Positions 1,945 through 36,217 of a stretch of 64,000 nt of DNA are shown here, one piece after another. The notes below the pieces were generated by a model. It saw only the letters and a list, made by a program, of their open reading frames with translations, searched no databases and was not told the origin of the DNA. A program made the translations under genes and the position numbers. Origin of the DNA: an uncultured Verrucomicrobiota bacterium (GTDB taxonomy: Bacteria; Verrucomicrobiota; Kiritimatiellia; JAAZAB01); NCBI GenBank assembly GCA_964650945.1, contig CAZYXU010000001.1:32474-96473 (forward strand), given 5' to 3'. The number at the start of each line of letters is the position of its first letter. Position 1 is the first letter of the stretch.

Positions 1945-4917
1945 TCACGAGCAGCCCATGGAATTGCCGCAGACGTAGCAGCGGTAGCAGGCGCCGTTGC
2001 GGACGGTGATGGCGCCGCATTGGTCGCAGACCGGGGCGTCCTCCTGGAAATGCAGGAACTGCCCGTCCAGGCGCCCCTGGGCATCCCCCGCCGCCGGTTC
2101 GGCCTGGGCGGCGGCCGGCGCGGCGGCGGCGGGTGCGGCGGCCGCCGGTTCGGCGGCGGGCGCGGGATGCTGCGCGGCCTTGGAATGGCCATCGGGGAAA
2201 GTCAAAGCCATCCAGCGGAAGATGTAATCCACGAGCGACTTGGCGAAGGGAATCTCCGGATTTTTGGTGAAACCGCTCGGTTCGAAACGGCTGTGGGTGA
2301 ATTTGTCAATCAGCGTGCTGATTGGCACGCCGTATTGCAGGCACATCGAAATGGCCGTGCCAAAGGCGTCCATAATGCCGCCCACCGTGCTGCCTTCCTT
2401 GGCCATGGTGATGAAGAGCTCGCCCGGCGCGCCGTCTTCATACAGCCCGACGGTCAGGTAACCCTGATGGCCGGCAACTTCGAATTTATGGGTGATGGAC
2501 TGGCGCGTTGCCGGCATCCGGCGCCGGAAAGGCTTGTTGGCCGGGCCCTTGGCGGCGGCCTCGTCAGTCGTTCCGCCCGCGCTTTCCCGGTTGGTGCTGA
2601 CCGGCTGGATACCCTTGGACCCGTCGCGGTAAATGGCCACGGCTTTCAACCCCAGTTTCCAGCCGTCCATGTAAGCCTGCAGCACATCCTCGACGGTGGC
2701 GTTGTTGGGCATGTTGATGGTTTTGCTGATGGCGCCGGAGAGGAAGGGCTGGGCCGCCGCCATCATCTGCAGGTGCGCGTGGTAGTTGATGCAGCGCTTG
2801 CCGTTCTTGGGCTTGAACGCGCAGTCGAACACCGGCAGGTGCGCCTCCTCCAGTTCCGGCGCGTCTTCAATCGTGTCGGTCTTGTCCACATGCGCGATAA
2901 TGGCCCGGATTTGCGCCGGGGTGTAGCCCAGGCGCTTGAGCGCGATCGGCAGCGACTGGTTGACGATTTTGAACATGCCGCCGCCGGCCAGTTGTTTGTA
3001 TTTCACCAGGGCGATGTCCGGCTCAACGCCGGTGGTATCGCAGTCCATCATGAAGCCGATGGTGCCGGTGGGCGCGAGGACGGTGACCTGGGCGTTGCGG
3101 AAGCCCTGGGCGAGCCCGGCTTCGCGGACATGCTCCCATACCGTCTGCGCTTCCCGCAGGATCACGCCGTTGCTGGCGGTGGCCGCGATGTGCGCCAGGG
3201 CGTCATGATGCTTGCCGATCACCTTGTTGAACGGTTCGCGGTTGAGCGGATACTCGTCAAAAGCACCCTTGACGCCGGCCAATTCGATGGAAGTGGCGTA
3301 CGCGGCCCCGGTCATCAGGGCGGTTACGGCGCCGGCGAAGGCCCGGCCGTCATTGCTGTCATACGGCAGCCCCAGGTTCATGATCAGCGCGCCCAGGTTG
3401 GCGTATCCCAGGCCCAGCGGACGGAAGCGATGGGAATTCTCCGCGATTTCGCGGGTCGGATAGCTGCCGTGGTCCACCAGGATTTCCTGGGCAATGACCA
3501 TGATGCGCGCTACGTGCTGGAACTGCCGGACGTCGAACACCTGGCGCTCGTCGGAAAATTTCATCAGATTGATCGAAGCCAGGTTGCAGGCGCTGTTGTC
3601 CACGAACATGTATTCCGAACACGGGTTGCTCGCGTTGATCGGCCCGCTTTTCGGACAGGTATGCCAACGGTTGATCGTGGTGTCGTATTGGAGCCCCGGG
3701 TCGCCGCAGAAATGCGCCGCCTCGGCGATGTTCCGCATCACCTGCCGCGCGTCCAGCACTTCCACAATCTCGCCCGTGGTGATCGCGCGGGTGTGCCAGA
3801 CCGTGCCGGCCTGCACGGCGTTGAGGAAGTCATCCGTCACGCGCACCGAAAGATTGGCGTTCTGAAACATGACCGATGAGTAAGCGTCGCCGTTGAAGGA
3901 GCCGTCATAGCCGGACTTGATCAGCACGCGCGCCTTTTTCTCTTCGTTGACCTTGCAATTGATGAAATCCAGGATGTCGGGATGTTGCACCTTGAGGCTT
4001 TGCATCTTCGCCGCGCGCCGGGTTTTGCCGCCCGACTTGATCACCGCCGCCACCTGGTCGAACACCCGCATGAAACTCAGCGGGCCGGAGGGCGTGCCGC
4101 CGCCGGAAAGCTTTTCGCGGCTGCTGCGCAGCGTGCTTAAATCCGTGCCGGTGCCCGACCCGTATTTGAACAGCATGGCCTCCGAACTCGCCAGGCGCAT
4201 GATGTCCTCCATGTTGTCGTTCACCGACTGGATGAAGCAGGCGGAAGCCTGGGGGTGCTTGTAGGAGTCCGCGGCCTTTTCAATCCGGCCGGCCTTGGCG
4301 TCCCAGTAATAGGCGGAGCGATTGTTGGAGGTCACGCCATACGCCTGTTGCAGTCCCACGTTGAACCAGACCGGGCTGTTGAAGGCGGCGTATTGGTTGA
4401 CGCAAAGATGCGTGAGTTCCTTGTAAAACACTTCGGCATCGGCCGGCGTCGCAAAGTAACCGTCATCGCGCCCCCAATCGGCGATGGTGCGCGCCACGCG
4501 GTGCACCAACTGGCGCACGGATTTTTCGCGCACGGCCGCGCCATGCGCGCCGTAAAAATATTTCGACGCCACCACGTTGGTCGCCAGCATGGACCAACTC
4601 TTCGGCACCTCAATATCGTCGGCTTCAAAAACCACTTCGCCCTTGTCGCTTTTGATGACTGCTTTGCGCTGTTCCCATTCGATCGCATCGAAGGGATGCC
4701 GGTCGGGGGTGGTGAATAATGGCTTGATCTGGATGCCCATGGCCTTGACCTTGCGTCCGTTGTTGCCGCCTTTGCGTGAATTGCGGGCGCGCACGCCCTC
4801 CGCCGATTCCGTCGTTTCAGTTTTTAATGCCCGGTTAACGCTGTCGTTTGCAGTATTATTCGCGGTGTTATCGCCCAAAGCCAGGCCGAGGCCGGCTGGT
4901 TCGCGGATTTCCAACAT
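1945..4917 (-). CDS. nrdJ: Class II (adenosylcobalamin-dependent) ribonucleoside-diphosphate reductase
   Basis: 990-aa ORF. The body from MGIQIKPLFTTPDRHPFDAIEWEQRKAVI...VVASKYF onwards is canonical NrdJ, with the Cys-rich C-terminal tail CDQCG...CYRCYVCGNSMGCS. An AGGAGA RBS sits 7 nt upstream of the ATG at 4917. An alternative internal start at comp. 4740 would drop a 59-aa low-complexity N-terminal extension. Confidence 0.9.
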   Translation of the reverse strand: MLEIREPAGLGLALGDNTANNTANDSVNRALKTETTESAEGVRARNSRKGGNNGRKVKAMGIQIKPLFTTPDRHPFDAIEWEQRKAVIKSDKGEVVFEADDIEVPKSWSMLATNVVASKYFYGAHGAAVREKSVRQLVHRVARTIADWGRDDGYFATPADAEVFYKELTHLCVNQYAAFNSPVWFNVGLQQAYGVTSNNRSAYYWDAKAGRIEKAADSYKHPQASACFIQSVNDNMEDIMRLASSEAMLFKYGSGTGTDLSTLRSSREKLSGGGTPSGPLSFMRVFDQVAAVIKSGGKTRRAAKMQSLKVQHPDILDFINCKVNEEKKARVLIKSGYDGSFNGDAYSSVMFQNANLSVRVTDDFLNAVQAGTVWHTRAITTGEIVEVLDARQVMRNIAEAAHFCGDPGLQYDTTINRWHTCPKSGPINASNPCSEYMFVDNSACNLASINLMKFSDERQVFDVRQFQHVARIMVIAQEILVDHGSYPTREIAENSHRFRPLGLGYANLGALIMNLGLPYDSNDGRAFAGAVTALMTGAAYATSIELAGVKGAFDEYPLNREPFNKVIGKHHDALAHIAATASNGVILREAQTVWEHVREAGLAQGFRNAQVTVLAPTGTIGFMMDCDTTGVEPDIALVKYKQLAGGGMFKIVNQSLPIALKRLGYTPAQIRAIIAHVDKTDTIEDAPELEEAHLPVFDCAFKPKNGKRCINYHAHLQMMAAAQPFLSGAISKTINMPNNATVEDVLQAYMDGWKLGLKAVAIYRDGSKGIQPVSTNRESAGGTTDEAAAKGPANKPFRRRMPATRQSITHKFEVAGHQGYLTVGLYEDGAPGELFITMAKEGSTVGGIMDAFGTAISMCLQYGVPISTLIDKFTHSRFEPSGFTKNPEIPFAKSLVDYIFRWMALTFPDGHSKAAQHPAPAAEPAAAAPAAAAPAAAQAEPAAGDAQGRLDGQFLHFQEDAPVCDQCGAITVRNGACYRCYVCGNSMGCS

Positions 4918-4977
4918 GGGGAGGTCTCCTAACTACAATTCATTAAGCAAATTACAACGATTGGTGGGCATTGCCTG

Positions 4978-5034
4978 CCACAATATTTGCCACCTTTTTT
5001 AAAAACAAGTCACTTTTAACACTACCTGTAGTGG
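4978..5034. promoter_or_regulatory. Two candidate NrdR-box-like operators upstream of nrdJ (CCACAATATTTGCCACC at 4978-4994; ACACTACCTGTAGTGG at 5019-5034)
   Basis: The second site matches the published 16-nt NrdR consensus acaCwAtATaTwGtgt at about 12/16 positions with palindromic flanks ACACTA...TAGTG. The first contains a CACAATAT half-site. Both lie 60-120 nt upstream of the nrdJ start in an AT-rich intergenic region. Confidence 0.3.
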
Positions 5035-5260
5035 ATGCCAAGAAAAAAATTTTAGCAAAAATATGAATGCCTAATTTTGCTTGGAAAACTGCGTTTTTTT
5101 TATTTTTTTTATTGAAAGAGTTGCTTCCAAAAGTCAAATATTGAAAGCGGTAGTCAGTATCCAGCGGTAAGTAGTCAGGATCGCAAAAGACACAAGACAT
5201 TTATAACAAACATCTTGTATTTATTCTGGATTCTGACTTGAATTCTGAATTCTTTCCATT

Positions 5261-5436
5261 AGCATCCCCCAGGATGCTCAGGCTGTAGGCTGAAGGCTGT
5301 AGGCTATAGGAAAACCGCGGATTTCAAGCATCGGATCGGAAAACACAGTTCCGTTTTTTTTGCCGATGTTTTTCGGGGTTTTAACCTACAGCCTACAGTC
5401 TAATAACCTTCAGCCTTGGCGTCCCTTATGGGACGC
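5261..5436. repeat. Composite inverted-repeat element: hairpin AGCATCC-CCCA-GGATGCT (5261-5278); left arm GGCTGTAGGCTGAAGGCTGTAGGCTATAGG (5281-5310); 73-nt core; right arm AACCTACAGCCTACAGTCTAATAACCTTCAGCC (5384-5416); hairpin GGCGTCCC-TTAT-GGGACGCC (5417-5436)
   Basis: Read directly: 5297-5310 pairs with 5385-5398 (14 bp, 1 mismatch) and 5288-5296 with 5408-5416 (9 bp), nested correctly. Two short perfect hairpins flank the arms symmetrically. The region is about 40% GC in a 65% GC genome. Confidence 0.5.
5329..5368 (+). terminator. Intrinsic-terminator-like hairpin (CGGAA-AACACAG-TTCCG followed by T8) nested inside an outer CATCGG/CCGATG pairing
   Basis: On the + strand the 5-bp stem and 7-nt loop are immediately followed by TTTTTTTT (5354-5361). 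The outer complementary hexamers 5329-5334 and 5363-5368 enclose the hairpin and T-tract. It lies inside the IR element core, about 330 nt upstream of the + strand gene at 5690. Confidence 0.4.
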
Positions 5437-5689
5437 CAGTGAAATTGGCTCAAAAAAATATTTTGCCGTGTTCATCGGGCGGATACGCGGCCGGCGTGAT
5501 CACGGCTGCGTCATACTCGGAAAAGACGGCTCGGCAGGGACGCCTCGCCCCACCATTTTGGCCATATCATCCTTGGTGGGGCGAACCGTCCCTGGTGAGC
5601 CGCAAGAATGACGCAGCCGTGCCGGCCTGATGCGGAGCGAAAATACCTGATTGCATTGTCGGGGATGGATTGATAACATCATCCGCATT

Positions 5690-6262
5690 ATGAAAAAACA
5701 TGCTGTAGTTTTTTTCGCGGCGTTTTTTAAACGCTGCTGGCCGCTGGGCCTGGCGGCGTTATGCCTGGTCTCCGCGCCCCGCGCGCAAGCCGAGCATTTG
5801 CTCGACCTGGGCGCGCGCTATCATGCCGCGCATCACCAGTTTGACAAACTGCCGTTCGGCAATGGCGATATCTCTTATCTGCTGGCCTATTCCTACGCCG
5901 AATCGCTGGCGCTCTGGCAATTGGGTGTGGATTTCGCGCCGGATGTTTCCGGTGAAATGGCGCTGGCGGGCGATCGGGTTGTCGGCGATATCGATTATGC
6001 CGTTACGCCGCAATTGAATTTGATCATCAAGGATAATTACTTCCGCGGCGGGGCGGGGGTGCGCACCAGCTATGTGGAAGCCGAAGATGACAGCGAGTGG
6101 CTCGATCCCTATTGGCAGTTTCTGCTGGGCCTGAATTTTCCGCTGATGGGCCGGTTTTCCCTGGATGCGTCCACAAGTTACGTCTTCGAACACCTGGAAA
6201 AACTGGATGGCTTCGATTTCCGCGATCTGGAATACCAACTGACCTTGAATGTGAAATTCTGA
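5690..6262 (+). CDS. Hypothetical secreted protein, probably a small outer-membrane beta-barrel (signal peptide; C-terminal Phe)
   Basis: N-terminus MKKHAVVFFAAFFKRCWPLGLAALCLVSAPRAQA is signal-peptide-like. Alternating hydrophobic residues and the terminal ...LTLNVKF are OMP-like. It is the first gene of the + strand glycosyltransferase cluster. Confidence 0.5.
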   Translation: MKKHAVVFFAAFFKRCWPLGLAALCLVSAPRAQAEHLLDLGARYHAAHHQFDKLPFGNGDISYLLAYSYAESLALWQLGVDFAPDVSGEMALAGDRVVGDIDYAVTPQLNLIIKDNYFRGGAGVRTSYVEAEDDSEWLDPYWQFLLGLNFPLMGRFSLDASTSYVFEHLEKLDGFDFRDLEYQLTLNVKF

Positions 6263-6336
6263 TTTGCCGCGGCGCCGCCGGCGGCAATCCCGGCAGCCGC
6301 TCCTGGCCCCCGCGCCGGTGAACCGGACGGTTTATA

Positions 6337-6873
6337 TTGCTTATGTCCAACGCATCCCCATCCGCAGCGAGCGCGCCGCCGGCCGGCCCGGCGGAGGCCG
6401 GTTTCGAGCTGGACATCGGCGCGGATGGCGTGGATGCGGAGCGGATCATGGCGGAAGTGCGCGCGGCGGTGGCGCGCAAGACGGAGGCCGGGGTTTATCG
6501 CGACTTGCGGATCGCCCAGGCCGAGCGCCATAACCTGCAAAACCTGCGGGATGACGAAAAATTTTTGCAGTTTTACCTGGAATGCCTGCATGAGGCCGCT
6601 TGCGTCGACATCAATGATTTTGAAATCCGCGAACGGCGGCGGCTGGGCGCCGGCCTGCTGGTGGCGTTGAAGCGGGCCGTCTGGCAGTTGTTGAAGTTCT
6701 ACACTTACCGGCTCTGGTCGCAGCAAAACCAGGTCAACGGCCTGCTGGTGACGGCGCTGGAAAGCCTGGATGAAAAATACCGGGTGCGCCTGGCGGCGCT
6801 GGAACAAAAAGTCGCCGCGCGGCCGCAAGCTGCGCAGGAAGGAACGCAGGTATGTCCACCGCCCGGCGCATAG
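6337..6873 (+). CDS. Hypothetical protein (no recognisable family), overlaps the start of the downstream GT4 gene
   Basis: 178-aa ORF, co-directional with the next gene and overlapping it by 22 nt (6852-6873); no motif recognised. Confidence 0.4.
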   Translation: MLMSNASPSAASAPPAGPAEAGFELDIGADGVDAERIMAEVRAAVARKTEAGVYRDLRIAQAERHNLQNLRDDEKFLQFYLECLHEAACVDINDFEIRERRRLGAGLLVALKRAVWQLLKFYTYRLWSQQNQVNGLLVTALESLDEKYRVRLAALEQKVAARPQAAQEGTQVCPPPGA

Positions 6874-8039
6874 CTTTTGTATGCCCGCGTTTTGCGGAAG
6901 GCGGCACGGTGGGCGGCGCCGAGACCTTGTTGAAAAATCTGGCGGAGCGCGCCGCCGCCGCCGGCCGCCAGGTGGCGTTCCTCACCACCTGCGCCGCCGA
7001 TCATTTCACCTGGGCCAACACCCTGCCGCCGGGCGTCCGCCAATTTGCCCCCAACATGACCGTGCAGTTTTTCCCCGTCGCGGAAAAACGCGATCTGGCG
7101 GAGTTCCTGCGGGCGCAGGATTTGATCTGCCGCGGCGCAGCCTATACGCCGGCGGATGAGCAGGCGTGGCTGGCCAACAGCGTCACCAGTCCGGCGCTTT
7201 GCGCGCATCTGGCGGAGGCCGGCGCGGCCTACGACCGGATCGTCATCGGGCCGTATCTGTTCGGGCTGACGTATTTCGCCAGCCAGGTCCGGCCGCGCCA
7301 GACCATCTTGCTGCCTTGCCTGCATGACGAGAGCTTTGCCCGGGTCCGGGCGTTCCGCGCGATGTTTCGGGCGGTGGGCGGGCTGATCTTCAATTCCGTT
7401 CCGGAACGCGAACTGGCGCGCCGGCTTTACGACCTGCCGCCGGACCGCGCCTGGGTGGTGGGGATGGGGTTGGACGCCTTCAGCGCCGATGCCGCGGCTT
7501 TCAGCCGGCGGCACGGACTGGCGGCGCCTTACTTGATCTATTCCGGCCGGCGCGAGGCGGGCAAGGGCGTGCCGCTGCTCCTGGATTATCTGAATCTTTT
7601 CCGGCAGCGCACGGGCATGGATGTCAAGCTGGTGCTGACCGGATCGGGAACGGTGGATCCGCCTCCCGGCCTGGCGCGGCATATTCTGGATGTGGGATTT
7701 GTCAGCGAAGCGGAGAAGCGCGAGGCCATGGCCGGCGCGGCGGTGTTTTGCCAGCCGTCCACCAACGAGAGTTTCAGCATCGTGCTGCTGGAGGCCTGGC
7801 TGGCGGGAACGCCGGCGTTGGTGCATGCGCGGTGCGCGGTCACCACCGATCATTGCCGGCAGAGCGGCGGCGGCCTGTGGTTCATGACTTACGCGGAGTT
7901 TGAAACGGAGTTGCTGCTGCTGCTGCGCCGGCCGGACTTGCGCCGGCGCATGGGGGCGGCGGGACGCGCCTATGTCGCGCGCGAGTATTCCTGGCCGGGC
8001 ATTCTGGCCAGGTTCCTCGCGGCGCTGGACCAGGAGTGA
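6852..8039 (+). CDS. GT4 family glycosyltransferase
   Basis: 395 aa; N-terminal IAFVCPRF...GGAE and a C-terminal E...FSIVLLEAWLAGTPAL block typical of Glycos_transf_1 (GT-B). Confidence 0.85.
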   Translation: MSTARRIAFVCPRFAEGGTVGGAETLLKNLAERAAAAGRQVAFLTTCAADHFTWANTLPPGVRQFAPNMTVQFFPVAEKRDLAEFLRAQDLICRGAAYTPADEQAWLANSVTSPALCAHLAEAGAAYDRIVIGPYLFGLTYFASQVRPRQTILLPCLHDESFARVRAFRAMFRAVGGLIFNSVPERELARRLYDLPPDRAWVVGMGLDAFSADAAAFSRRHGLAAPYLIYSGRREAGKGVPLLLDYLNLFRQRTGMDVKLVLTGSGTVDPPPGLARHILDVGFVSEAEKREAMAGAAVFCQPSTNESFSIVLLEAWLAGTPALVHARCAVTTDHCRQSGGGLWFMTYAEFETELLLLLRRPDLRRRMGAAGRAYVAREYSWPGILARFLAALDQE

Positions 8040-25096: not shown

Positions 25097-25759
25097 TTAC
25101 GCCACCAGTCCCGCCTCCTGAAAACTGTAATACCCTTTCCGGGTAACAATGATCTGATCCAGGACGCGGATGCCTAGAATCTTTGCCGCCTGGGTCAGTT
25201 GCTCGTGTATCTTCAGGTCGGCGTCGCTGGGTTTGAGTTCGCCGGATGGGTGGTTGTGGGCGAAGATGACGGCGGCGGCCCGGTCGGCGATTACGTCGGC
25301 AAAGACCTCTCGCGGGTGAACCTGGCTCCGGTCCAGTAGGCCGATGGTGACGGTGCGCTTCTCGATGACTTCGTTTGCGCCGTTCAGGGAAATGCAGAGG
25401 AAGTGCTCCTGTTGCTTCCCGGCAATGTCGGCCAGTAGTGGAAGGGCATCGGCGGACGTCGCAATCTTGACCGTGTCCCTTAACAGGTGCCGCCGGGCGA
25501 GTTCAAAAGCGGCAAGGACTTGGTATGCCTTGGCGGGGCCCATGCCGTGAATGGCGGTCAGGTCCGCCTCGGTAAGCCCCGTTTTCTTCACTTGAATGAT
25601 CTTGGCGATCTCCTTCGACATAGCCCGTACATCGTGGCCCTGAACGCCGCGGCCAAGGATGACCTGAACGAGTTCCTCATCCGTCAAGGCAGACGCGCCC
25701 CTGGCCGCCATCTTTTCACGGGGTCGATCCTGTTCAGGCATGTCCTTGATGGTCTTCAC
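25097..25759 (-). CDS. radC: RadC-family JAB/MPN domain protein (UPF0758)
   Basis: C-terminal HNHPSGELKPSDADLKIHEQL (JAMM motif) and N-terminal HhH region; 4-nt overlap with hsdM upstream. Confidence 0.85.
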   Translation of the reverse strand: MKTIKDMPEQDRPREKMAARGASALTDEELVQVILGRGVQGHDVRAMSKEIAKIIQVKKTGLTEADLTAIHGMGPAKAYQVLAAFELARRHLLRDTVKIATSADALPLLADIAGKQQEHFLCISLNGANEVIEKRTVTIGLLDRSQVHPREVFADVIADRAAAVIFAHNHPSGELKPSDADLKIHEQLTQAAKILGIRVLDQIIVTRKGYYSFQEAGLVA

Positions 25760-27537: not shown

Positions 27538-28005
27538 TCAAATGTCTTTTTCATTGAGCACCTCCCTGGGTGTGCGAATATCAATCAAACCGTAACCTTC
27601 CTTCAAGTTTACGGAATTGTATAGTCGGATGCGGTTTAGATTCACGATGTGCTTGAAGTTCCAACTTACCAGAACATCCACTCGTGCCACCGTCGCGGCG
27701 GCGATGTGCAGTCCATCCGCCACGGTTGCCGGCGTCACAATGCCATCGCGGAGATAGGCATCGGCCAAGGCCAGCGATTCATTTGTCTCGGGCAATATCT
27801 CTCGGCGCTCCACGGGCATATCCTCCACAATCTCCCGCACTCGTCCCGGCGCTTGCCGTAGTTCCCGGATCGTCAGTTCCGACAGCACCATCTTCTTGCG
27901 CCCATGCCGAAACTCCCCCATCAGGCGTACCGACCATTCCTTGAACTCATCCTCAAAGCAACCTCCGATCACTGACGTGTCAACGTAGATTCGCATCTTG
28001 TCCAT
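27538..28005 (-). CDS. PIN-domain protein (VapC-like putative toxin/ribonuclease)
   Basis: MDKMRIYVDTSVIGG (first conserved Asp), E at about 40, VADGLHIAAA (third acidic), SWNFKHI and a C-terminal acidic residue: the PIN fold signature. Starts 15 nt after the HTH gene stop. Confidence 0.75.
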   Translation of the reverse strand: MDKMRIYVDTSVIGGCFEDEFKEWSVRLMGEFRHGRKKMVLSELTIRELRQAPGRVREIVEDMPVERREILPETNESLALADAYLRDGIVTPATVADGLHIAAATVARVDVLVSWNFKHIVNLNRIRLYNSVNLKEGYGLIDIRTPREVLNEKDI

Positions 28006-28020
28006 CCATATTGCTGAAGG

Positions 28021-28425
28021 TCACACGGCCAACGCCTTTGCGCGCCGGTCTAGATCGGGCGAGTGGAGTTTCCGCACTTCCTCGATGAATTCGTCCAGTT
28101 CCTTCTCGGTCAATTCCGCGCCGCGGACCGTCCGGAAGAAGACCGGCAGTTTCGCGAGCAACTTCTCGTCGCTCATGATCTCCCGTGGAATCTGGCCTCG
28201 GGCGATATCCGCCTGATCCATGAAGTCCTGCCACTCGGATGACTCCGGCTTCAGGCCGAGCGCCTTGGCCCATTTCGCCAAGGTCTTCGTGTCCTTGGGC
28301 GGCGGATTGACGTTCCGCTCGATCTTGCTCCAGTTGCTCGGATCAACCTCGTTCTCGGCACAGAATTGCCGTAGCGTCCTCCCCTGCGCGATCCGCTTGT
28401 CTTTAACGAGTTCGCCGAATGTCAT
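28021..28425 (-). CDS. XRE-family helix-turn-helix protein (putative antitoxin/regulator), 134 aa
   Basis: AGGAGG RBS 8 nt upstream of the ATG; ELVKDKRIAQGRTLRQFCAENEVDPSNWSKIERN is a classic HTH_3 motif, with a 70-aa C-terminal domain. Confidence 0.75.
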   Translation of the reverse strand: MTFGELVKDKRIAQGRTLRQFCAENEVDPSNWSKIERNVNPPPKDTKTLAKWAKALGLKPESSEWQDFMDQADIARGQIPREIMSDEKLLAKLPVFFRTVRGAELTEKELDEFIEEVRKLHSPDLDRRAKALAV

Positions 28426-28497
28426 GGTAAGGTCCTCCTGTTGCTTCATCCGTGGTGTAGAATAAACCACATGTGGTAGGAATGCAACCACAAAATA

Positions 28498-29718
28498 CTA
28501 CCCGAAATCGAACGCCTCGCGCAGGATCGCTCCGGGCAGGGCGGAAACAGCATCTCGTTCGTTGGCCGAAGCCGCTCTGATCCTGCTTATGGCCTTCCGT
28601 TGCCTTTCGACGTCTTTCACAATGTTTTCCTGGTCGTCAATAGTGGGCGGTATGGGTACCGGGTAGTCACGCATGAAATCCGCAGGCACCCGCTGTTGCC
28701 CCGCGCTGCCATCGAATTTCGCCTCTGCAGCATCGCGGAATTCGCGAGTTCGCACCAGAAACAAGAGCCATTCTCGCCGAATCCCGGGCTTGGCCCTCAA
28801 GACGTGGAATTCGGTTGTGCCAAAACCGAAGCCTTTGGTCAAACCCGTTGCGATCGCCGACTTTCCGTTCTGCATACATGGCGTTATTTTCGCAAACAAC
28901 ACGTCGCCCTCTTCGAAATAGGTGTAGCCCTTCGCGACTGACGAGAGAGGTTTCGTAATTCTCGTTGCGATCTGCCCCAGAGTCTCGTCTATGGCGTCCA
29001 TTGGCACAAAACTGACCATGGCATCTGCCTTTTCTGCGCCAAGCGCCTTGCGACGCGGATTGATGTCGGCCATCTTACCCAATGGTACTCTCATCCATCC
29101 ACTAGGCAAACGATCTCCTCGTCCCGTGTGCAGGGCGTTGCGAAGAAACGCGCATTCGAGCGTTGCCGCTGCGTCTATCTGTCTCTCCGACGCCCGCCGC
29201 ATGGACTCGACCTTGCTTAACTTCCGCTCCAGTTCGGCAGCGAGACTGTCTCTCGCTGCTTCCTCACGTGGGACAGGAACGCAAAGGCGTTTCAGTTTCC
29301 GAATGTCGGCTCTGGGCATCCGGCCGCCCGTTGAATACTTCACCGCGCAGTCTATGACCTGCTTCGACTGGAGAGCGGCTGCAAGAAAGGCGCGGGACAC
29401 CCCGGCGGCTGGTCTCAATGTGAGGATTTCCATACAGCATTTTCCAGGTATATCCGGCAGGAATACCTTGTCGAGATAGGGGCGCAGTTTTCCGTATAGG
29501 ACGTGAGTATGGTCGAAACGGAAGCATGTGCTCTCCGCCTTGGCGGGAGACTCCGAAATGAACCGGCGCGTATGCGATTCGATATTTTCCAGACCTACAA
29601 ACGGCAATCCGGCGAAGTCGGGGTCACCCGCTTGGACTTGGTTTCGCTCTTCCTCGAAGAGATTTCCCAGTTCCATCCATTGCCAGTCTGGGGGTAGTTG
29701 TCTGGCTGTTGAGGTCAT
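28498..29718 (-). CDS. hsdS: Type I restriction-modification system, specificity subunit (two TRDs)
   Basis: 406 aa with two target-recognition domains separated by a conserved central helix (LAAELERKLSKVE...) and C-terminal helix repeats. ATGA overlap with the hsdR stop. Confidence 0.85.
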   Translation of the reverse strand: MTSTARQLPPDWQWMELGNLFEEERNQVQAGDPDFAGLPFVGLENIESHTRRFISESPAKAESTCFRFDHTHVLYGKLRPYLDKVFLPDIPGKCCMEILTLRPAAGVSRAFLAAALQSKQVIDCAVKYSTGGRMPRADIRKLKRLCVPVPREEAARDSLAAELERKLSKVESMRRASERQIDAAATLECAFLRNALHTGRGDRLPSGWMRVPLGKMADINPRRKALGAEKADAMVSFVPMDAIDETLGQIATRITKPLSSVAKGYTYFEEGDVLFAKITPCMQNGKSAIATGLTKGFGFGTTEFHVLRAKPGIRREWLLFLVRTREFRDAAEAKFDGSAGQQRVPADFMRDYPVPIPPTIDDQENIVKDVERQRKAISRIRAASANERDAVSALPGAILREAFDFG

Positions 29719-32111
29719 GCCAGCAGCCTCGCCTTGGTTTCCTGAATCACGGCCTGCGGCGTGAGCGGGAGGCGCAGGAGCGCGTCGAAGCCGCCTTGCT
29801 GAACGACCTCGTCCACGTCGAACAGATGATGGGTTTCCAGTTCCTCAATGCCGCCCTTCTCGAATTGGCGGGCAATCGCCATGACCACGCCGGCGGAGCG
29901 GTCCGGGAATTGCCGCAGCCAGGTCTTGTTCTTATACCCGAAGGCGGCGACGCGCTCCGGGCGCGAGCGGGCGGGTATGCCGTAGCCGAGATTGACCAAC
30001 ACGTCGAAAAGATCGCACTCCTGCTCTTCCTCGATTTCCCGAATGAGCCGGATCGCGCCTTCGCCGCCCGGTAGGGCGGTGATTAACTCCCGGCGGCGGG
30101 CCGGTTGAATCCAGATGGTGCGCAGGGCGTCCGCCGTGGGCGCGGTCTCGGTGAGTTGCGCGGCAAGGCGCTGTTTGTAGGTCTCCAGCGGAACCAGGAC
30201 TTCCTTCCCGTCCTCCTCGCATAGGATGGAATGGCCGGCGCCGTCAATCTGGACCGTGAATTGATCCTGCCCTACGCGAATGATCTTTCGCTTGGGCGTG
30301 TCGGATTTGCCGTAGCCGGGCGTCGGGGATTCGACGCCTTCGGCCGGTTCGTCGGTCGGGGAAGACGGTTTGGCGCGGCTGACGAAGGGTTGCCCGAAAA
30401 GGCGGGCGGCGTTGGTGTAGTCGTAAACGCGGAAGAGCAGTTTCGAGCCGCGCGGTTCGCCGGTGCGCGTGCCGCGGCCCACCATCTGGTAGAACATGAT
30501 CGGCGATTCGATGTATCGGAAGAAGACCACGTTGGCGCAGTTGGGTATATCCACGCCGTAGCCCAGCAGATCGACCGTGGCGGCGATGAAATGGGAGTTC
30601 TTCGATCCCCGGAATTCGGGGATCAGTTTGTCGGCGGATGGCCGCAAGTCCGGGTTGCCCGTGCATTGGAAGGCAAACCACTCCTTCGGCGTGCGCCCGT
30701 TGTCCCGGCACCATTGCTCGTACAGGTTGTTCAACTTGATCATCACGCGGTTGGCGTGGCTGTCGCGGGCGCAGAACAGGATGGTTTTCTGGTGAGGCCC
30801 GCCGGAATCGAGCAGGAGCTTAAACAGGTCTTCGCACATGGCGTTCACACGGTCGTCCAGCATCAGAATGCTGTCGTAGTCCGTAGCGGTATACTTGTCT
30901 TCGATATCGCCGGGATTGACCGGCTTACCGGTGAAGGGGTCCACGGCGGACCGCGTCTCAATGTCTTTTCGCGTGATCTCCTTCTTGTCCAGATCAACGG
31001 TCCGGCGGATGATCTCGCACGCGGCGAGATAGCCGTCATCCTGGCCGGTGGTCATGGCGTACTCGTAGACCGGTTCGCCGAAATAGTTGACGTTGTGTGC
31101 GGTGATGGTCTCGTCCGTCATCCGGGCCGGCTGCCCCTTTTTGCCCCCGACTACCTTCCGGGGCGTGGCGGTCAGGCCGATATGCACGGCATCCGGGTTG
31201 TCCTTCAGAATCACGCTCCACTTGCTCCACGCCGACCGGTGGCACTCGTCAATGACGATGTGACTAAAGAAACCGGGCGGGTAGTTCTGTTTCCAGAATA
31301 AGGGTTCGCTGTCCTCCGCCGTGACATTGAGCGTCTGATAGGTCGCCACGAGCACCTTGGCATTGCGGGCCGGATCCTCGCTGGTGACGATCTTCGCATT
31401 ATCGCCGAAGATCGCGTGCAACTTGCCCATGCCCTGGGTGCGGAGTTCATCGCGGTCGCAGACGAACAACGCGCGTTTCAGCATGCCAGCCTGGGCCAGT
31501 TTCCAGAGCAATTGAGCGGCTAGGACCGTCTTGCCCGTGCCGGTAGCCAGGGACAGAAGCGCCCGATTTCCGCCGCCGGCCAGCTTCTCCAACGTCGCGC
31601 GGATTGCCGCATCCTGGAAGTACCAGCGGGCCGCCTCGCCGCCCTTGTACGGCATGAAAAGCGCCTTGGCCGCGTCGGTATCGAGGGTGATTCCCCGCAA
31701 CGCCTCGTAACGCGCCTTGAGTTGTGCGGGAGTCGGGAACTCAGACAGCGGCCGGTTCTCGATAATCTGACCGGTATCCTCGCCGTATTCGGTGAAAAGG
31801 TGGCCGTTCGTGGCAAACACAAACGGCACATTGTACTTCCGCATGTAGTCCTTCGCTTGTTGGATGCCGAGGGACGGCAGTTTGTCCTCGGCTTTGGCCT
31901 CCATCAGGGCGATTGACAACGGCGACTTGCCGGCATGGATCGGCAGGCACAGAAGGTAATCTGACCGCCCCTTCCGCTTGCGGGGCTTCCCGTCCACGAT
32001 ATCCGCACCGCCTGGAGTCTTCTCTTCCCGGACAAGATCGTCCGTCCATCCGATCCCGTCCAGAACCGGATCGATCAACTCCACCCTGGTCAGATGTTCA
32101 TTCCGTGGCAT
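29715..32111 (-). CDS. hsdR: Type I restriction enzyme, R (endonuclease/helicase) subunit, short EcoEI-like form
   Basis: HSDR_N-type N-terminus (LIDPVLDGIGW...SIALMEAKAED PD-(D/E)xK), Walker A SLATGTGKT, DEAH box VIDECHRS, helicase motifs, and an EcoEI_R_C-like C-terminus; 798 aa. Confidence 0.85.
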   Translation of the reverse strand: MPRNEHLTRVELIDPVLDGIGWTDDLVREEKTPGGADIVDGKPRKRKGRSDYLLCLPIHAGKSPLSIALMEAKAEDKLPSLGIQQAKDYMRKYNVPFVFATNGHLFTEYGEDTGQIIENRPLSEFPTPAQLKARYEALRGITLDTDAAKALFMPYKGGEAARWYFQDAAIRATLEKLAGGGNRALLSLATGTGKTVLAAQLLWKLAQAGMLKRALFVCDRDELRTQGMGKLHAIFGDNAKIVTSEDPARNAKVLVATYQTLNVTAEDSEPLFWKQNYPPGFFSHIVIDECHRSAWSKWSVILKDNPDAVHIGLTATPRKVVGGKKGQPARMTDETITAHNVNYFGEPVYEYAMTTGQDDGYLAACEIIRRTVDLDKKEITRKDIETRSAVDPFTGKPVNPGDIEDKYTATDYDSILMLDDRVNAMCEDLFKLLLDSGGPHQKTILFCARDSHANRVMIKLNNLYEQWCRDNGRTPKEWFAFQCTGNPDLRPSADKLIPEFRGSKNSHFIAATVDLLGYGVDIPNCANVVFFRYIESPIMFYQMVGRGTRTGEPRGSKLLFRVYDYTNAARLFGQPFVSRAKPSSPTDEPAEGVESPTPGYGKSDTPKRKIIRVGQDQFTVQIDGAGHSILCEEDGKEVLVPLETYKQRLAAQLTETAPTADALRTIWIQPARRRELITALPGGEGAIRLIREIEEEQECDLFDVLVNLGYGIPARSRPERVAAFGYKNKTWLRQFPDRSAGVVMAIARQFEKGGIEELETHHLFDVDEVVQQGGFDALLRLPLTPQAVIQETKARLLA

Positions 32112-32255: not shown

Positions 32256-32474
32256 ATGGCAAGTACACTCCAGATTGAGAGCATGTCACGCGCGGAAAAA
32301 CTCCAGGCAATGGAGGCCATTTGGTCCGATTTATCCAAAGATGAAGCCAACGTGGAGTCTCCTCCATGGCACGCTGACGTTCTCAGGGAAACCAATGCCA
32401 GGGTTGCCGCAGGTCAGGAGCGCATAGCAGACTGGGAAACGGCCAAGCTGGAACTCCGGAAACGGTTTGAATGA
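32256..32474 (+). CDS. Addiction-module antitoxin (putative addiction module component family, 72 aa)
   Basis: MSRAEKLQAMEAIWSDLSKDE...PPWHADVL...AAGQERIADWE pattern of the TIGR02574-type antitoxins that partner RelE/ParE toxins. Confidence 0.75.
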   Translation: MASTLQIESMSRAEKLQAMEAIWSDLSKDEANVESPPWHADVLRETNARVAAGQERIADWETAKLELRKRFE

Positions 32475-32611
32475 GGATCAAAATCCTGTCTTCAGCCATG
32501 GAAGACTTACACGCCGGGCGCCTGTTTTACGAGATGCAGGCGGAGGGAGTAGGCGCGTACTTTTTTGATTCCCTGTTTTCCAACATTGACTCCCCCGTTG
32601 ATCCAGAATAG
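32471..32611 (+). pseudogene. Truncated RelE/ParE-family toxin remnant (46 codons; about half length)
   Basis: ATGA overlap with the antitoxin stop. MRIKILSSAMEDLHAGRLFYEMQAEGVGAYFFDSLFSNIDS resembles ParE N-termini, but the frame stops after 46 aa, directly followed by the RBS and start of gap. Confidence 0.45.
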
Positions 32612-32625
32612 TTAAGGAGGCAAGC

Positions 32626-33630
32626 ATGAGTAAAATAGCCATTCACGGATTCGGTCGTATCGGGCGCTCCACACTGAAGGCGGCCCTCAAGCGGAACCTC
32701 TTTGTGCCTGTCGCCATTTCCGACATCAAGGACTTGCCGACACTGGCCGCGCTGTTCGAGGCGGACTCCAATTACGGCCGCTGGAGCGAAGCCGTTACCA
32801 CGAAGGACGGACACCTCGGGATCGCATCGCGCTCGGTGCAGTACATCGACGCAACCAAGTCGTTGCCGGACTGGGGCGCCTTGGGCGTCGAGCTGGTGAT
32901 TGACTGTACCGGACGGGCAACGACCCGGGCCGGCGCCCAGGCTCATCTCGACCGCGGGGCCAAGCGCGTCCTGATCAGCGCGGCAAGCAAGACGCAGCAG
33001 GATGCAGACGCCGTCCTGCTGCCCGGGATCAATCTGGACCAGTTCGATCCGCTGCGGCACCGCATTGTGAGCATGGCGAGTTGCACGACCAACGCCCTGG
33101 CGCCCGTGATCAAGGTGCTGCTGGACAATTTCGGGATCAAGTGCGGTTTCTTCTCGACCGTGCATGCCTACACGAACACCCAGGCGCTCACGGACCAACC
33201 CATGCGCGACCGCCGCGATTCATGGGCCGCCGCCGAGAACATCATCCCCTCGTCTTCGGGCGCAGCGCGGGCCCTGCAGTTCATCTGGCCGGGGTTGACC
33301 ATCACGGGGAAATCGTACCGCGTGCCGGTGCGCACCGTGAGCATCGCCGAGGTGAATGCGGTAACCGCACGGGCCGCCGGCGCGGAAGAAGTCAAGGCGC
33401 TGTTCCGGGAGGCGGCCGCAAGCGGCCCGATGAAGGGTATCGTGGATGTGCTGGAGCAGGAATGGGCGTCTTCCCGGATTATTGGCGACGAGCACTCATC
33501 CATCATTGACCTGCCCCTGGTGCAAGTACTCGGCGGCACACTGGTATCAGTGGCGGCCTGGTATGACAACGAGATGGGATACGCCACTCGACTGGCCGAG
33601 GCGGCAGCCTGCTTGACCGCCGGCCGATGA
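32626..33630 (+). CDS. gap: Glyceraldehyde-3-phosphate dehydrogenase family protein
   Basis: AIHGFGRIGR NAD-binding start and ASCTTNALAP catalytic Cys motif; 334 aa. AAGGAGG RBS. Confidence 0.85.
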   Translation: MSKIAIHGFGRIGRSTLKAALKRNLFVPVAISDIKDLPTLAALFEADSNYGRWSEAVTTKDGHLGIASRSVQYIDATKSLPDWGALGVELVIDCTGRATTRAGAQAHLDRGAKRVLISAASKTQQDADAVLLPGINLDQFDPLRHRIVSMASCTTNALAPVIKVLLDNFGIKCGFFSTVHAYTNTQALTDQPMRDRRDSWAAAENIIPSSSGAARALQFIWPGLTITGKSYRVPVRTVSIAEVNAVTARAAGAEEVKALFREAAASGPMKGIVDVLEQEWASSRIIGDEHSSIIDLPLVQVLGGTLVSVAAWYDNEMGYATRLAEAAACLTAGR

Positions 33631-33689
33631 CACTGCCGCCTTGCTCAACAACTGCCTGGATATTTCCGGAACGCTGGCGAGGCAGTCAC

Positions 33690-33717
33690 CGGAATTTGAA
33701 CGGGATTTACAGGATTA
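33690..33717. repeat. 28-nt direct repeat copy 1 (CGGAATTTGAACGGGATTTACAGGATTA)
   Basis: Matches 33866-33893 at 24/28 positions; located just after the gap stop at the left edge of an about 40% GC islet. Confidence 0.5.
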
Positions 33718-33865
33718 CCTATTCGCTCTGAAAGAAAGATTTGATTTCAGCGGTCTTTTATGAATATTATGTACTAGGTGAAAATATGCGTGCGAGGGGT
33801 CGCTGCAAGGGGGCGGTCCCATAAAATGATGATCATGGCATGAAGGTGGTGGGCAGGTCAGGCAT

Positions 33866-33893
33866 CGGAATTATGACAGGATTTACAGGATTA
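33866..33893. repeat. 28-nt direct repeat copy 2 (CGGAATTATGACAGGATTTACAGGATTA), ends 5 nt before the PIN gene start codon
   Basis: See copy 1; 176 nt apart. Confidence 0.5.
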
Positions 33894-33897
33894 AAAA

Positions 33898-34329
33898 ATG
33901 TTGATTTATCTGGATACATGCTGTTTTAACCGTCCGTATGATGACCAGATGCAGATAAATGTCAGGCTGGAGACGGAAGCCAAGTTGTCCATTCAGGAAC
34001 ATGTGAAGCGAGGTAACCTGGATTTAGCTTGGTCGTTCATTTTGGATTATGAAATTGCCCAAAATCCCTTTCCGGAACGCCGGCTTGCAATCCATGATTG
34101 GCGTGGTTATGCGTGCAGGGATGTTGCGCAATCGGCCAAAATTGTTCATCAGGCAAAAATACTGTCTGAACAGTTGATTCAAACATTTGATGCGTTGCAT
34201 GTCGCTTGCGCGATGCAAGCTGGTTGTCAATATTTCATAACTGCCGACAAACGCTTGATTCAAAGATTGAAACATAATAAGGTAATCCATGTTGTTAATC
34301 CCGTCAGATTTGTCATGGAGGTGCTATAA
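33898..34329 (+). CDS. PIN-domain protein (VapC-like), AT-rich gene
   Basis: MLIYLDTCCF (N-terminal Asp), E about 26-30, FDALHVACA and ITADKRL segments fit a PIN fold. Gene GC is about 40%. Confidence 0.6.
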   Translation: MLIYLDTCCFNRPYDDQMQINVRLETEAKLSIQEHVKRGNLDLAWSFILDYEIAQNPFPERRLAIHDWRGYACRDVAQSAKIVHQAKILSEQLIQTFDALHVACAMQAGCQYFITADKRLIQRLKHNKVIHVVNPVRFVMEVL

Positions 34330-34577
34330 TGATCAGCGATACGCAAATACGTATTAAGGGCATGCAGGCGCTTACGGGCACTTTGGGTGATATCCAGGCG
34401 GAAAGGTTTATTACGCTTATGATTCGCGAACCATTTGATTACACCGAATGGCGACGTGATTTGTGGCAAGGTAAAAGCGTGGAAGAAATAAGCAATGAAG
34501 CCATGCGATACCGACGCACACACCGTTTGCGTAAAATCGGGTCCGCCAGGAAGACCGCAACTAAACGCAATAAATAA
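34329..34577 (+). CDS. Hypothetical 82-aa protein downstream of and overlapping (ATGA) the PIN gene; possible cognate antitoxin
   Basis: Start codon overlaps the PIN stop; basic C-terminus (RRTHRLRKIGSARKTATKRNK). No family recognised. Confidence 0.4.
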   Translation: MISDTQIRIKGMQALTGTLGDIQAERFITLMIREPFDYTEWRRDLWQGKSVEEISNEAMRYRRTHRLRKIGSARKTATKRNK

Positions 34578-34580
34578 CTC

Positions 34581-34640
34581 ATGCTCGCAAAAATCCATAG
34601 CGGCGCGGTGTACGGTGTTGACGCATCCCTCCTTCGCTGA
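34581..34640 (+). pseudogene. Duplicated, divergent 5' fragment of comM ([16 protein letters not shown] then stop)
   Basis: 19-codon frame whose first 16 residues match the N-terminus of the intact comM 100 nt downstream ([16 protein letters not shown]) with mostly synonymous nucleotide differences. Confidence 0.45.
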
Positions 34641-34681
34641 AGCTACGGAGGGCGAGACGCGGTGTTTTGAGCAGAATCATT

Positions 34682-36217
34682 ATGCTTGCCAATGTTCATA
34701 GTGGCGCCGTTTATGGCGTCGATGCTTATGCCGTGGAGATTGAGGTTAACTCCGGCCATGGCGATCCGCAGACGGTGATCGTGGGGCTGCCCGACGCCGC
34801 CGTGAAGGAATCGAAGGACCGGGTCCACACCGCCATCATCAATTCCGGATTCGAGATGCCGAAGGGGCGGCTGACGGTCAACCTGGCGCCGGCGGATGTG
34901 AAGAAGGAAGGGCCGAGTTTCGACTTGCCGATTGCCCTGGGCGTGCTGGCGACGGAGGGCGAGGTACCGGCCGGCGTCCTGGAGCAATTTGCCCTGGTGG
35001 GCGAATTGGCTTTAAGCGGGGAAGTCCGCCGGGTGCGCGGCATCTTGCCGATCACCCTGGCCATGCGGGATGCCGGGCGGCGGGCGATCATCGTGCCGCA
35101 GGACAATGCCGAGGAGGCGGCGGTGGTGGATGGGATTGACGTGTATCCCGTCAACTCCCTGCGCCAGGCGGTGGAACTGCTGGCCGGGCGCGGTCTTGAT
35201 AAGCCGTGCAAGGTTGACATTGAAAAGGCGTTCGAATCGCACCTGGCGTACGAGGAGGATTTTTCGGACATCAAGGGGCAGGAGCAGGCCAAGCGCGCGG
35301 TGGAAGTGGCGGTGGCCGGCGGCCACAACATTTTATTCATCGGGCCGCCGGGCACGGGTAAAACCATGCTGGCCCGGCGCATTCCCTCGATTCTGCCGCT
35401 GTTGACCCTGCCGGAGGCGCTGGAGGCGACCAAGATCCACAGCGTGGCCGGCGCCCTGCCTCCGCACCAGGCGCTCCTGACGCGCCGGCCGTTCCGCACC
35501 CCGCACCACACGGTTTCCGATGCCGGGCTGTTGGGCGGCGGCGCGCATCCGGCGCCGGGCGAGGTCAGCCTGGCGCATGGCGGCGTGCTTTTCCTGGACG
35601 AGTTGCCGGAATTCCACCGCAACGTGCTGGAAGTGTTGCGCCAGCCGCTGGAGGATGGGATGGTGACGATCGCGCGGGCGGCGGCCAGTGTGGCCTTCCC
35701 CTGCCGGTTCATGCTGGTGGCGGCGATGAATCCCTGCCCCTGCGGCTATCTCAACGACCGCCGGCATGAGTGCCGCTGTACGCCGCTGCAAATCCAGCGT
35801 TACCGCAACAAGATTTCGGGTCCGTTGCTGGACCGGATTGACATCCATATCGAAGTGCCGTCGGTGCGCTACCAGGACCTGGCGGCGCCGCCGGCCGGCG
35901 AAAAGTCCTTCGCGGTCCGCCAGCGGGTGATGGCGGCGCGCGCGCGGCAGCAGGCGCGGTTTGCGCCGGCGCGCAAGACGCATTGCAATGCGGAAATGCG
36001 CGCCCGCGACATCCATAAGCATTGCGCGCTCGACGCCGCCTCCCAGCAATTGCTCAAAACCGCGATCACGGAATTGAATTTCAGCGCCCGGGCCTACGAC
36101 CGCATCCTCAAGGTCGCGCGCACCATCGCCGACCTGGAAGGCGCGGAAAACATCCAGTCGCAGCATGTCTCCGAGGCGATTCAGTACCGGACACTCGACC
36201 GGCAGTTCTGGGTTTAA
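34682..36217 (+). CDS. comM: YifB/ComM family Mg-chelatase-like AAA+ ATPase
   Basis: N-terminal Lon-protease-like domain, Walker A GPPGTGKT, Walker [10 protein letters not shown]4 zinc motif [15 protein letters not shown] and a C-terminal helical domain; 511 aa from MLANVHSG. Confidence 0.85.

Follow-up and report, generated by a model that had tools for sequence, protein, structure and literature searches.

A low-GC PIN–SM islet upstream of comM in an uncultured Kiritimatiellia bacterium: a toxin-first, type II-like gene pair in a probable exchanged cassette

VapBC toxin–antitoxin (TA) systems, among them VapBC of Shigella and Rickettsia and FitAB of Neisseria, are built around a toxin of about 140 amino acids (aa) that has the PIN fold with its acidic residues. 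The two genes form a compact bicistronic operon in which they overlap or abut, the operons occupy mobile, island-associated sites, and decay affects the toxin but spares the partner. All of these properties recur in the family represented at the locus described here, a low-GC islet between the genes gap and comM in a stretch of 64,000 nucleotides (nt) from an uncultured bacterium of the Kiritimatiellia (contig CAZYXU010000001.1; this whole 64-kb stretch is called the window, and positions are counted from its first letter). The islet carries a gene for a PIN-domain protein (PIN), followed by an open reading frame (ORF) for an 82-aa protein that we call SM. The PIN–SM pair is unlike VapBC in that the putative toxin gene stands first and the partner is not a VapB of the AbrB, RHH, Phd or HTH type, belonging instead to an unannotated all-helical family. 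Canonical VapBC loci are recognised by an upstream VapB with an AbrB, RHH, Phd/YefM or HTH domain, whereas the window has SM downstream of PIN, without such a domain or fold. The order of toxin gene before antitoxin gene in one operon is known from HigBA, HicAB and MqsRA. This likeness is one of architecture only; their toxins have RelE-like, HicA and MqsR folds and not the PIN fold, and their antitoxins are HTH, HicB and zinc-HTH proteins, features that SM lacks.

The comM gene is the insertion point of comM-targeting islands, for example those of the AbaR type in Acinetobacter, which have a displaced comM fragment at the junction. In comparison with these islands, the insert in the window is small (~0.9 kb), no recombinase or transposase was found here, the resident comM is intact, and the duplicates at the two edges are diverged (69–79%) rather than being identical target duplications. 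Full-text literature searches and term look-ups in single papers returned no description of a toxin-first PIN system with such a partner. We propose that the islet is, on balance, probably a horizontally exchanged cassette of ~0.9 kb with a toxin-first, type II-like PIN–SM pair, recombined in upstream of the resident comM.

The conserved PIN–SM pair

The PIN protein matches the PF01850 profile with 24.5 bits (gathering score 23.6; E 4.6e-5), over residues 80–121 only, and the same profile is matched by 50 of the 56 PIN family members, the best at E 4.9e-8. Its AlphaFold2 (AF2) model has a predicted local distance difference test (pLDDT) score of 95.3 and a predicted template modelling (pTM) score of 0.89. 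In a Foldseek comparison of this model with the PDB, the top 20 matches are all VapC or FitB structures (probability 1.0, TM 0.53–0.67). A sequence search of the PDB found no relative of PIN, so that VapC was found by fold comparison only. No variation occurs at D6, D98 and D117 across the 56 PIN sequences, and conservation of E25 and E27 is 90% or higher; in the AF2 model, the acidic residues lie where a PIN domain should have them, at the ends of strands and the starts of helices. Profile match, predicted fold and acidic residues thus support a VapC-like putative toxin as the product of this ORF, in line with the PIN assignment made in an earlier reading of the same DNA (hereafter the original prediction). 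At least 630 PIN homologues of ~145 aa are present in many phyla.

SM is basic, as had been noted from its translation, with a counted net charge of about +8 that resides chiefly in the C-terminal tail. Members of its family are 67–82 aa long and share the invariant residues L15, F27, D37, Y38, T39 and W41 together with the motif REPFDYTEW. The family comprises 1631 clusters (50% identity) at E<=1e-3, at least 570 metagenome loci encode an SM relative, and those members that are named in any source checked are hypothetical proteins throughout. Used singly or as a 54-member alignment, SM has no match in Pfam, NCBIfam, PADLOC, PHROGs or the PDB. In particular, the partner families suggested earlier (UPF0175, DUF433, RHH and HicB) were not matched by the 82-aa protein, as the search of Pfam, in which they are included, gave nothing at E up to 1. 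The antisense ORFs within the islet (34260–34598 and 34024–34290) gave no family match.

Relatives of the locus were found by exact-protein look-ups and a metagenome scan. Two contigs of metagenome-assembled genomes (MAGs), L180 and L181 (GCA_046260775.1 and GCA_020201415.1, with the source names Kiritimatiellia bacterium and Lentisphaerota bacterium), were reached through a member of the SM 90% cluster. The PIN and SM genes of the window share 1 nt (TAATG). The ATGA string persists, but a TAA one codon before it ends PIN, and in most relatives the genes overlap by the 4-nt ATGA. The coordinates of PIN and the order of the two ORFs were correctly given in the original prediction, and the ATGA overlap described there is replaced by the 1-nt TAATG. 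An SM homologue lies directly 3' of PIN in all eight independent PIN-anchored contexts (family profile E 1e-24 to 1e-34), and PIN without SM was seen in none of these eight. Upstream of PIN there is no conserved partner: gap takes this place in the window, an unassigned ORF in the metagenome contig L010, MNT in L008, and other genes elsewhere. The genes around PIN–SM contexts include integrases, TraG_N, a transposase, other TA genes and HsdM.

The SM-anchored survey covered 69 metagenome loci with enough upstream sequence. The upstream PIN gene is intact at 43 of them, mostly with an overlap of 4 or 11 nt, disrupted by stops, frameshifts or truncation at 13, and absent at a further 13; one locus counted as disrupted (L124) appears intact by tblastn, so that its count as disrupted may be a stop-codon artefact and the split may be 44/12. 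Close relatives of the window show the same decay. In L180 (positions 1–104) and L181 (6988–7153), PIN has an internal deletion of ~260 nt that fuses codon 22 to about codon 110, with SM intact, and in L173 (1–60) PIN is wholly deleted and the leader is fused to SM codon 27, with SM recorded as intact. PIN is often lost with SM kept and the reverse was not seen in the contexts examined, which is the pattern expected of a poison and its antidote. Moreover, pairwise identities of PIN and of SM are correlated (mirror-tree, r = 0.87), a value matched by none of 2000 permutations. PIN and SM are therefore a conserved, co-evolving pair. PIN would be toxic, and SM, as its antidote, would most likely bind and neutralise it. 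The VapC fold, the conserved overlapping pairing and the asymmetry of decay between putative toxin and antitoxin together back the TA-like module that had been proposed for this locus.

Composition and edges of the islet

The islet lies between the end of the gap ORF (33630) and the comM start (34682). Its 950 nt have a GC content of 45.3%, the minimum among 1261 sliding windows of the 64-kb window (mean 0.625). In 200-nt windows over 33700–34600, GC is 0.415–0.455, compared with 0.61–0.69 in both flanks. The GC drop reported earlier between the gap stop and comM is real, at a value of ~45% and not ~40%. The comparison with core genes that had been recommended gives the same picture: GC at third codon positions (GC3) is 0.45 in PIN and 0.49 in SM, far under the 0.80 of gap, 0.83 of comM and 0.80 of hsdR. 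The features of the islet and its right flank are collected in Table 1.

Table 1 Features of the islet and the adjoining comM gene, in window positions
Feature	Positions	Strand	Evidence or remark
16-nt fragment TTTCCGGAACGCTGGC, 15/16 identical to PIN-internal 34069–34084 (NPFPER region)	33663–33678	+	E 0.012, borderline
Direct repeat copy 1, diverged (79%) leader duplicate, no gene after it	33676–33717	+	BLAST, shuffles
Inter-repeat segment, opening with CCTATTCGCT (in L010: CCTACTCGCT)	33718–33851	+	similarity to L010 resumes
Direct repeat copy 2, cassette leader/5' untranslated region	33852–33893	+	identical in L010
PIN-domain (VapC-like) putative toxin, 143 aa	33898–34329	+	PF01850, AF2 fold, conserved acidic residues
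SM, 82-aa all-helical basic protein, putative antitoxin/partner	34329–34577	+	unannotated family
comM' stub, first 16 codons of foreign comM allele, ATGCTCGCAAAAATCCATAGCGGCGCGGTGTACGGTGTTGACGCATCC	34581–34628	+	matches L180 comM 5' end
Spacer from stub to comM start, 53 nt	34629–34681	+	presumed resident comM leader
Resident comM, 511 aa, Mg_chelatase/ChlI domains, core flank and not cassette	34682–36217	+	family match

The left edge is formed by a pair of direct repeats. The original prediction described them as 28-mers, and both their positions and the match of 24/28 hold; the true repeat is longer, with 42 nt of which 33 are identical (BLAST E 2e-7). Its diagonal score of 24 compares with a maximum of 13 over 300 shuffles, and the 15-mer core GGATTTACAGGATTA occurs at these two sites only in the 64-kb window (expected 0.03). 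The PIN ATG follows 4 nt after the end of copy 2, and copy 1 is placed 176 nt further 5' than copy 2. Copy 2 holds the tandem 9-mers ACAGGATTT/ACAGGATTA and a Shine-Dalgarno-like AGGA at 33887–33890, 7 nt 5' of the PIN ATG. It is identical in L010, kept in its 3' half in L181 (19/21) and shortened in L173, and all three relatives have the copy-2 equivalent only, copy 1 being missing in these as in every other relative seen. Copy 2 is conserved with the cassette and has a ribosome-binding site, which makes it the leader of the cassette itself. For copy 1, the simplest reading is a leftover leader, or scar, of a resident or older cassette. The 16-nt PIN-like fragment, which sits immediately 5' of copy 1, might stem from an older cassette.

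Between the repeats, a conserved box CCCATAAAATGATGATC at 33818–33834, ~70 nt 5' of the ATG, is kept in L010 and L181. Its general form is CC(C/T)ATAAAATGATRATC, and the TAAAAT at 33822–33827 is a candidate -10 element. The sole sigma70-like site returned by a scan, at 33741–33770, is at chance level. Several other explanations of the upstream region were tried and rejected. Decayed PIN or SM coding sequence in 33631–33897, which ERFDFS- and FPER-like strings might suggest, was not found in a six-frame search with the family profiles. The idea that the repeats descend from an antitoxin gene of the Phd/RelB type, followed by a "relE stub", was dropped, as the upstream ORF fragment of L010 has no Pfam match and a 19-nt match inside it is at chance. 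A genome-wide repetitive extragenic palindrome (REP) or miniature inverted-repeat transposable element (MITE) was set aside as well, the core of the repeat being unique in the window and absent from viral contigs. A structured RNA or type III antitoxin finds no Rfam match, tandem array or significant fold.

The right edge is formed by a comM stub, of which the original prediction made no mention. The stub starts 3 nt past the SM stop and opens a 19-codon ORF that ends at the TGA at 34638–34640. Its 48 nt match the 5' end of the L180 comM at 42 positions, compared with 33 for the start of the adjacent resident comM, which lies 100 nt downstream. The junction of SM, 3 nt and comM is also present in L180, L181, L172 and L173. 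The stub marks the right end of the imported segment. In the spacer that follows, neither a terminator nor a significant fold is predicted. A 43-nt counterpart with ~70% similarity to the spacer lies in L172 at 388–430, inside the comM frame of this low-coverage metagenome contig; the match is not repeated elsewhere.

Relatives, probable transfer and alternative explanations

In both L180 and L181, comM comes 3 nt after SM, with an intact comM (511 aa) in L180 and none called in L181. The segment 34225–34624, which covers the PIN 3' end, SM and the stub, is 91.25% identical to L180/L181 at the nt level, and comM is 81.5% identical to that of L180 (86.7% at the aa level). The cassette and stub are nearer to the MAGs than comM is, which is a signature of transfer. 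This contrast of 91% with 81.5%, together with the low GC3, agrees with the horizontal acquisition put forward in the original prediction. With the L010 contig, 603 nt of the module share 99.3% identity; the figure falls to 88% across the 43 nt that adjoin the leader on its 5' side, and beyond these the sequences are unrelated. L091, the closest relative by comM (84% aa), has a different family member 33 nt 5' of comM, in DNA with a GC of 0.42–0.47; identity to the proteins of the window is 55% for its PIN and 72% for its SM. Linkage of the cassette with comM was not seen at ~70 other SM loci or at 80 comM loci from other phyla. We conclude that members of the cassette family turn over at the comM 5' end, a lineage-specific slot. 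The nearest comM from a species-representative genome has just 69% identity and lacks synteny. Separately, L181 has a 2.5-kb low-GC stretch upstream of comM (5000–7500 of that contig) with Unstab_antitox and a 103-aa partner, DUF2442 and the PIN–SM remnant, which suggests a zone of TA accumulation at this site.

A simple scheme would account for both edges. The window segment 33718–34628 (~0.9 kb) would be the donor segment carrying PIN–SM, and the donor would be kin to certain Kiritimatiellia/Lentisphaerota MAGs that have the cassette 3 nt 5' of comM. The cassette would have been excised with the first 16 codons of the donor comM and joined 5' of the resident comM by non-homologous or homology-facilitated illegitimate recombination. 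It would thereby have come to lie with copy 1, the resident leader, on its left and the leader of the resident comM (34629–34681) on its right. One such recombination event would produce both edge duplications, the stub by the comM start and leader copy 2 by copy 1. How the segment recombined and where copy 1 came from are inferred here.

Several points weigh against this account. The 16-nt PIN-like fragment 5' of copy 1 misfits the simple scheme, and the origin given to copy 1 comes from the model itself. Part of the higher identity of the module could be due to saturated GC-rich third positions in comM. L091, with the same site and low GC, leaves room for an old, vertically kept and fast-evolving cassette. 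No relative without the insertion was found in species-representative genomes, and no recombinase was found in the window by a crude tblastn with one tyrosine recombinase. In addition, the TA function of PIN–SM is deduced from sequence and predicted fold, and the SM model has no recognisable DNA-binding or antitoxin fold.

The last point also bears on the suggestion that operators for autoregulation by SM or PIN–SM, in the classical type II style, reside in the 42-nt repeats or in the ACAGGATT(T/A) 9-mers that they contain. Copy 2 has the conserved TAAAAT box on one side and the start codon on the other, as is typical of operators, tandem 9-mers are present in each repeat copy, and the C-terminal tail of SM is strongly basic in this sub-lineage. 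Significant close direct repeats also occur 5' of PIN at five of ~45 family loci (L098, L137, L147, L097 and L126), whereas most family loci have no upstream repeats above shuffle level and SM has no known DNA-binding fold. Copy 1 fits an operator poorly, being 176 nt upstream, followed by no gene and missing in L010, L181 and L173, and the comM stub, a parallel diverged duplicate at the other edge, argues for recombination as the source of both. We regard the operator role as rather unlikely, though less so for the tandem 9-mers of copy 2. The original prediction had offered operator sites or remnants of an insertion, and the recombination remnant fits better because copy 2 alone accompanies the cassette, both copies lie 5' of the genes at a distance of 176 nt from each other, and a comM stub stands at the other edge.

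The direction of transfer could also be reversed, the cassette being the old resident and comM, with its 53-nt leader, being imported from codon 17 on, so that the stub would be the remnant of the old gene. This would suit the presence of a family member at the comM start in three lineages (the window, L180/L181 and L091), the low GC that persists in all three, and the contiguity of stub and cassette, 3 nt past SM as in L180. It appears unlikely in view of composition, since the GC3 of comM (0.83) resembles that of gap, hsdR and the rest of the window and the cassette is the compositional outlier. Replacement of comM only also leaves the left-edge duplicate, copy 1, unexplained, and the PIN of L091 (55% aa) is no closer than members from unrelated samples at 52–57%, which points to turnover and not vertical descent. 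Another reading concerns the function of the pair. PIN–SM might be a nuclease of two subunits, for RNA processing or defence, to which SM contributes as cofactor or specificity subunit, and the pair would be co-transcribed with comM in this clade. The lack of an antitoxin-like fold in SM, of a predicted terminator between SM and comM, and the adjacency of cassette and comM in three lineages would be compatible with it. We consider it quite improbable, however, given that orphan SM and dead PIN with SM are common and PIN without SM was never seen, a signature of antidote and poison rather than of an enzyme that needs both its subunits. Furthermore, the comM linkage is missing at ~70 other SM loci and 80 comM loci of other phyla, and PADLOC gave no match.

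Two further kinds of element were tried as identities of the islet and rejected. An integron cassette was set aside, as 33000–35500 has no suitable inverted repeats, there is no significant fold 3' of SM, and one crude query gave no integrase-like match. A site-specific element at comM was likewise set aside, with both 42-nt repeats 5' of the genes, a stub that matches the comM start at 33/48, and no recombinase found in a weak one-query test.

Neighbouring loci and significance

Other low-GC and TA-like sequences are present in the window. The sole other low-GC stretch, at 4300–5900 (0.46–0.49), reaches from upstream of a 990-aa ORF (1945–4917, - strand) into its 5' end; by eye, from the sequence alone, we take this ORF to be a ribonucleotide reductase. 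A second TA relic lies at 32256–32611, on the other side of gap; it consists of a 72-aa antitoxin of the Unstab_antitox family (Pfam E 5e-11) and, overlapping it, a truncated toxin-like ORF of 46 aa that stops 15 nt short of the gap start codon. A type I restriction–modification operon contains, between hsdS and hsdM, an HTH_19/31 protein and a weak PIN-like ORF (27538–28488, - strand); the match of the latter to PF01850 (E 0.0074) is under the gathering score. The same region includes hsdR (29715–32111) and RadC (25097–25759).

The element in the window is ordinary in kind, its partner family is previously undescribed, and current understanding is not overturned. A broader view, which we put forward tentatively and with more doubt than confidence, is that PIN–SM represents a large, phylum-spanning family of toxin-first type II TA systems (at least 1,600 clusters at 50% identity) with a new small helical antitoxin fold that bears the REPFDYTEW motif, repeatedly exchanged at the comM-start slot in one Kiritimatiellia/Lentisphaerota clade, where, with no predicted terminator in between, it may drive or gate the expression of ComM, a competence helicase. 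The comM linkage in one clade hints that a TA operon and a gene for natural transformation could be coupled. Should SM prove to be a true antitoxin, the PIN/VapC world would gain an antitoxin family and fold that are new and abundant, and well over 1000 small hypothetical proteins could be annotated. The locus is also a natural case of TA-cassette turnover at a fixed chromosomal slot with the scars of both junctions preserved, and it is useful for learning how cassettes without a recombinase move.

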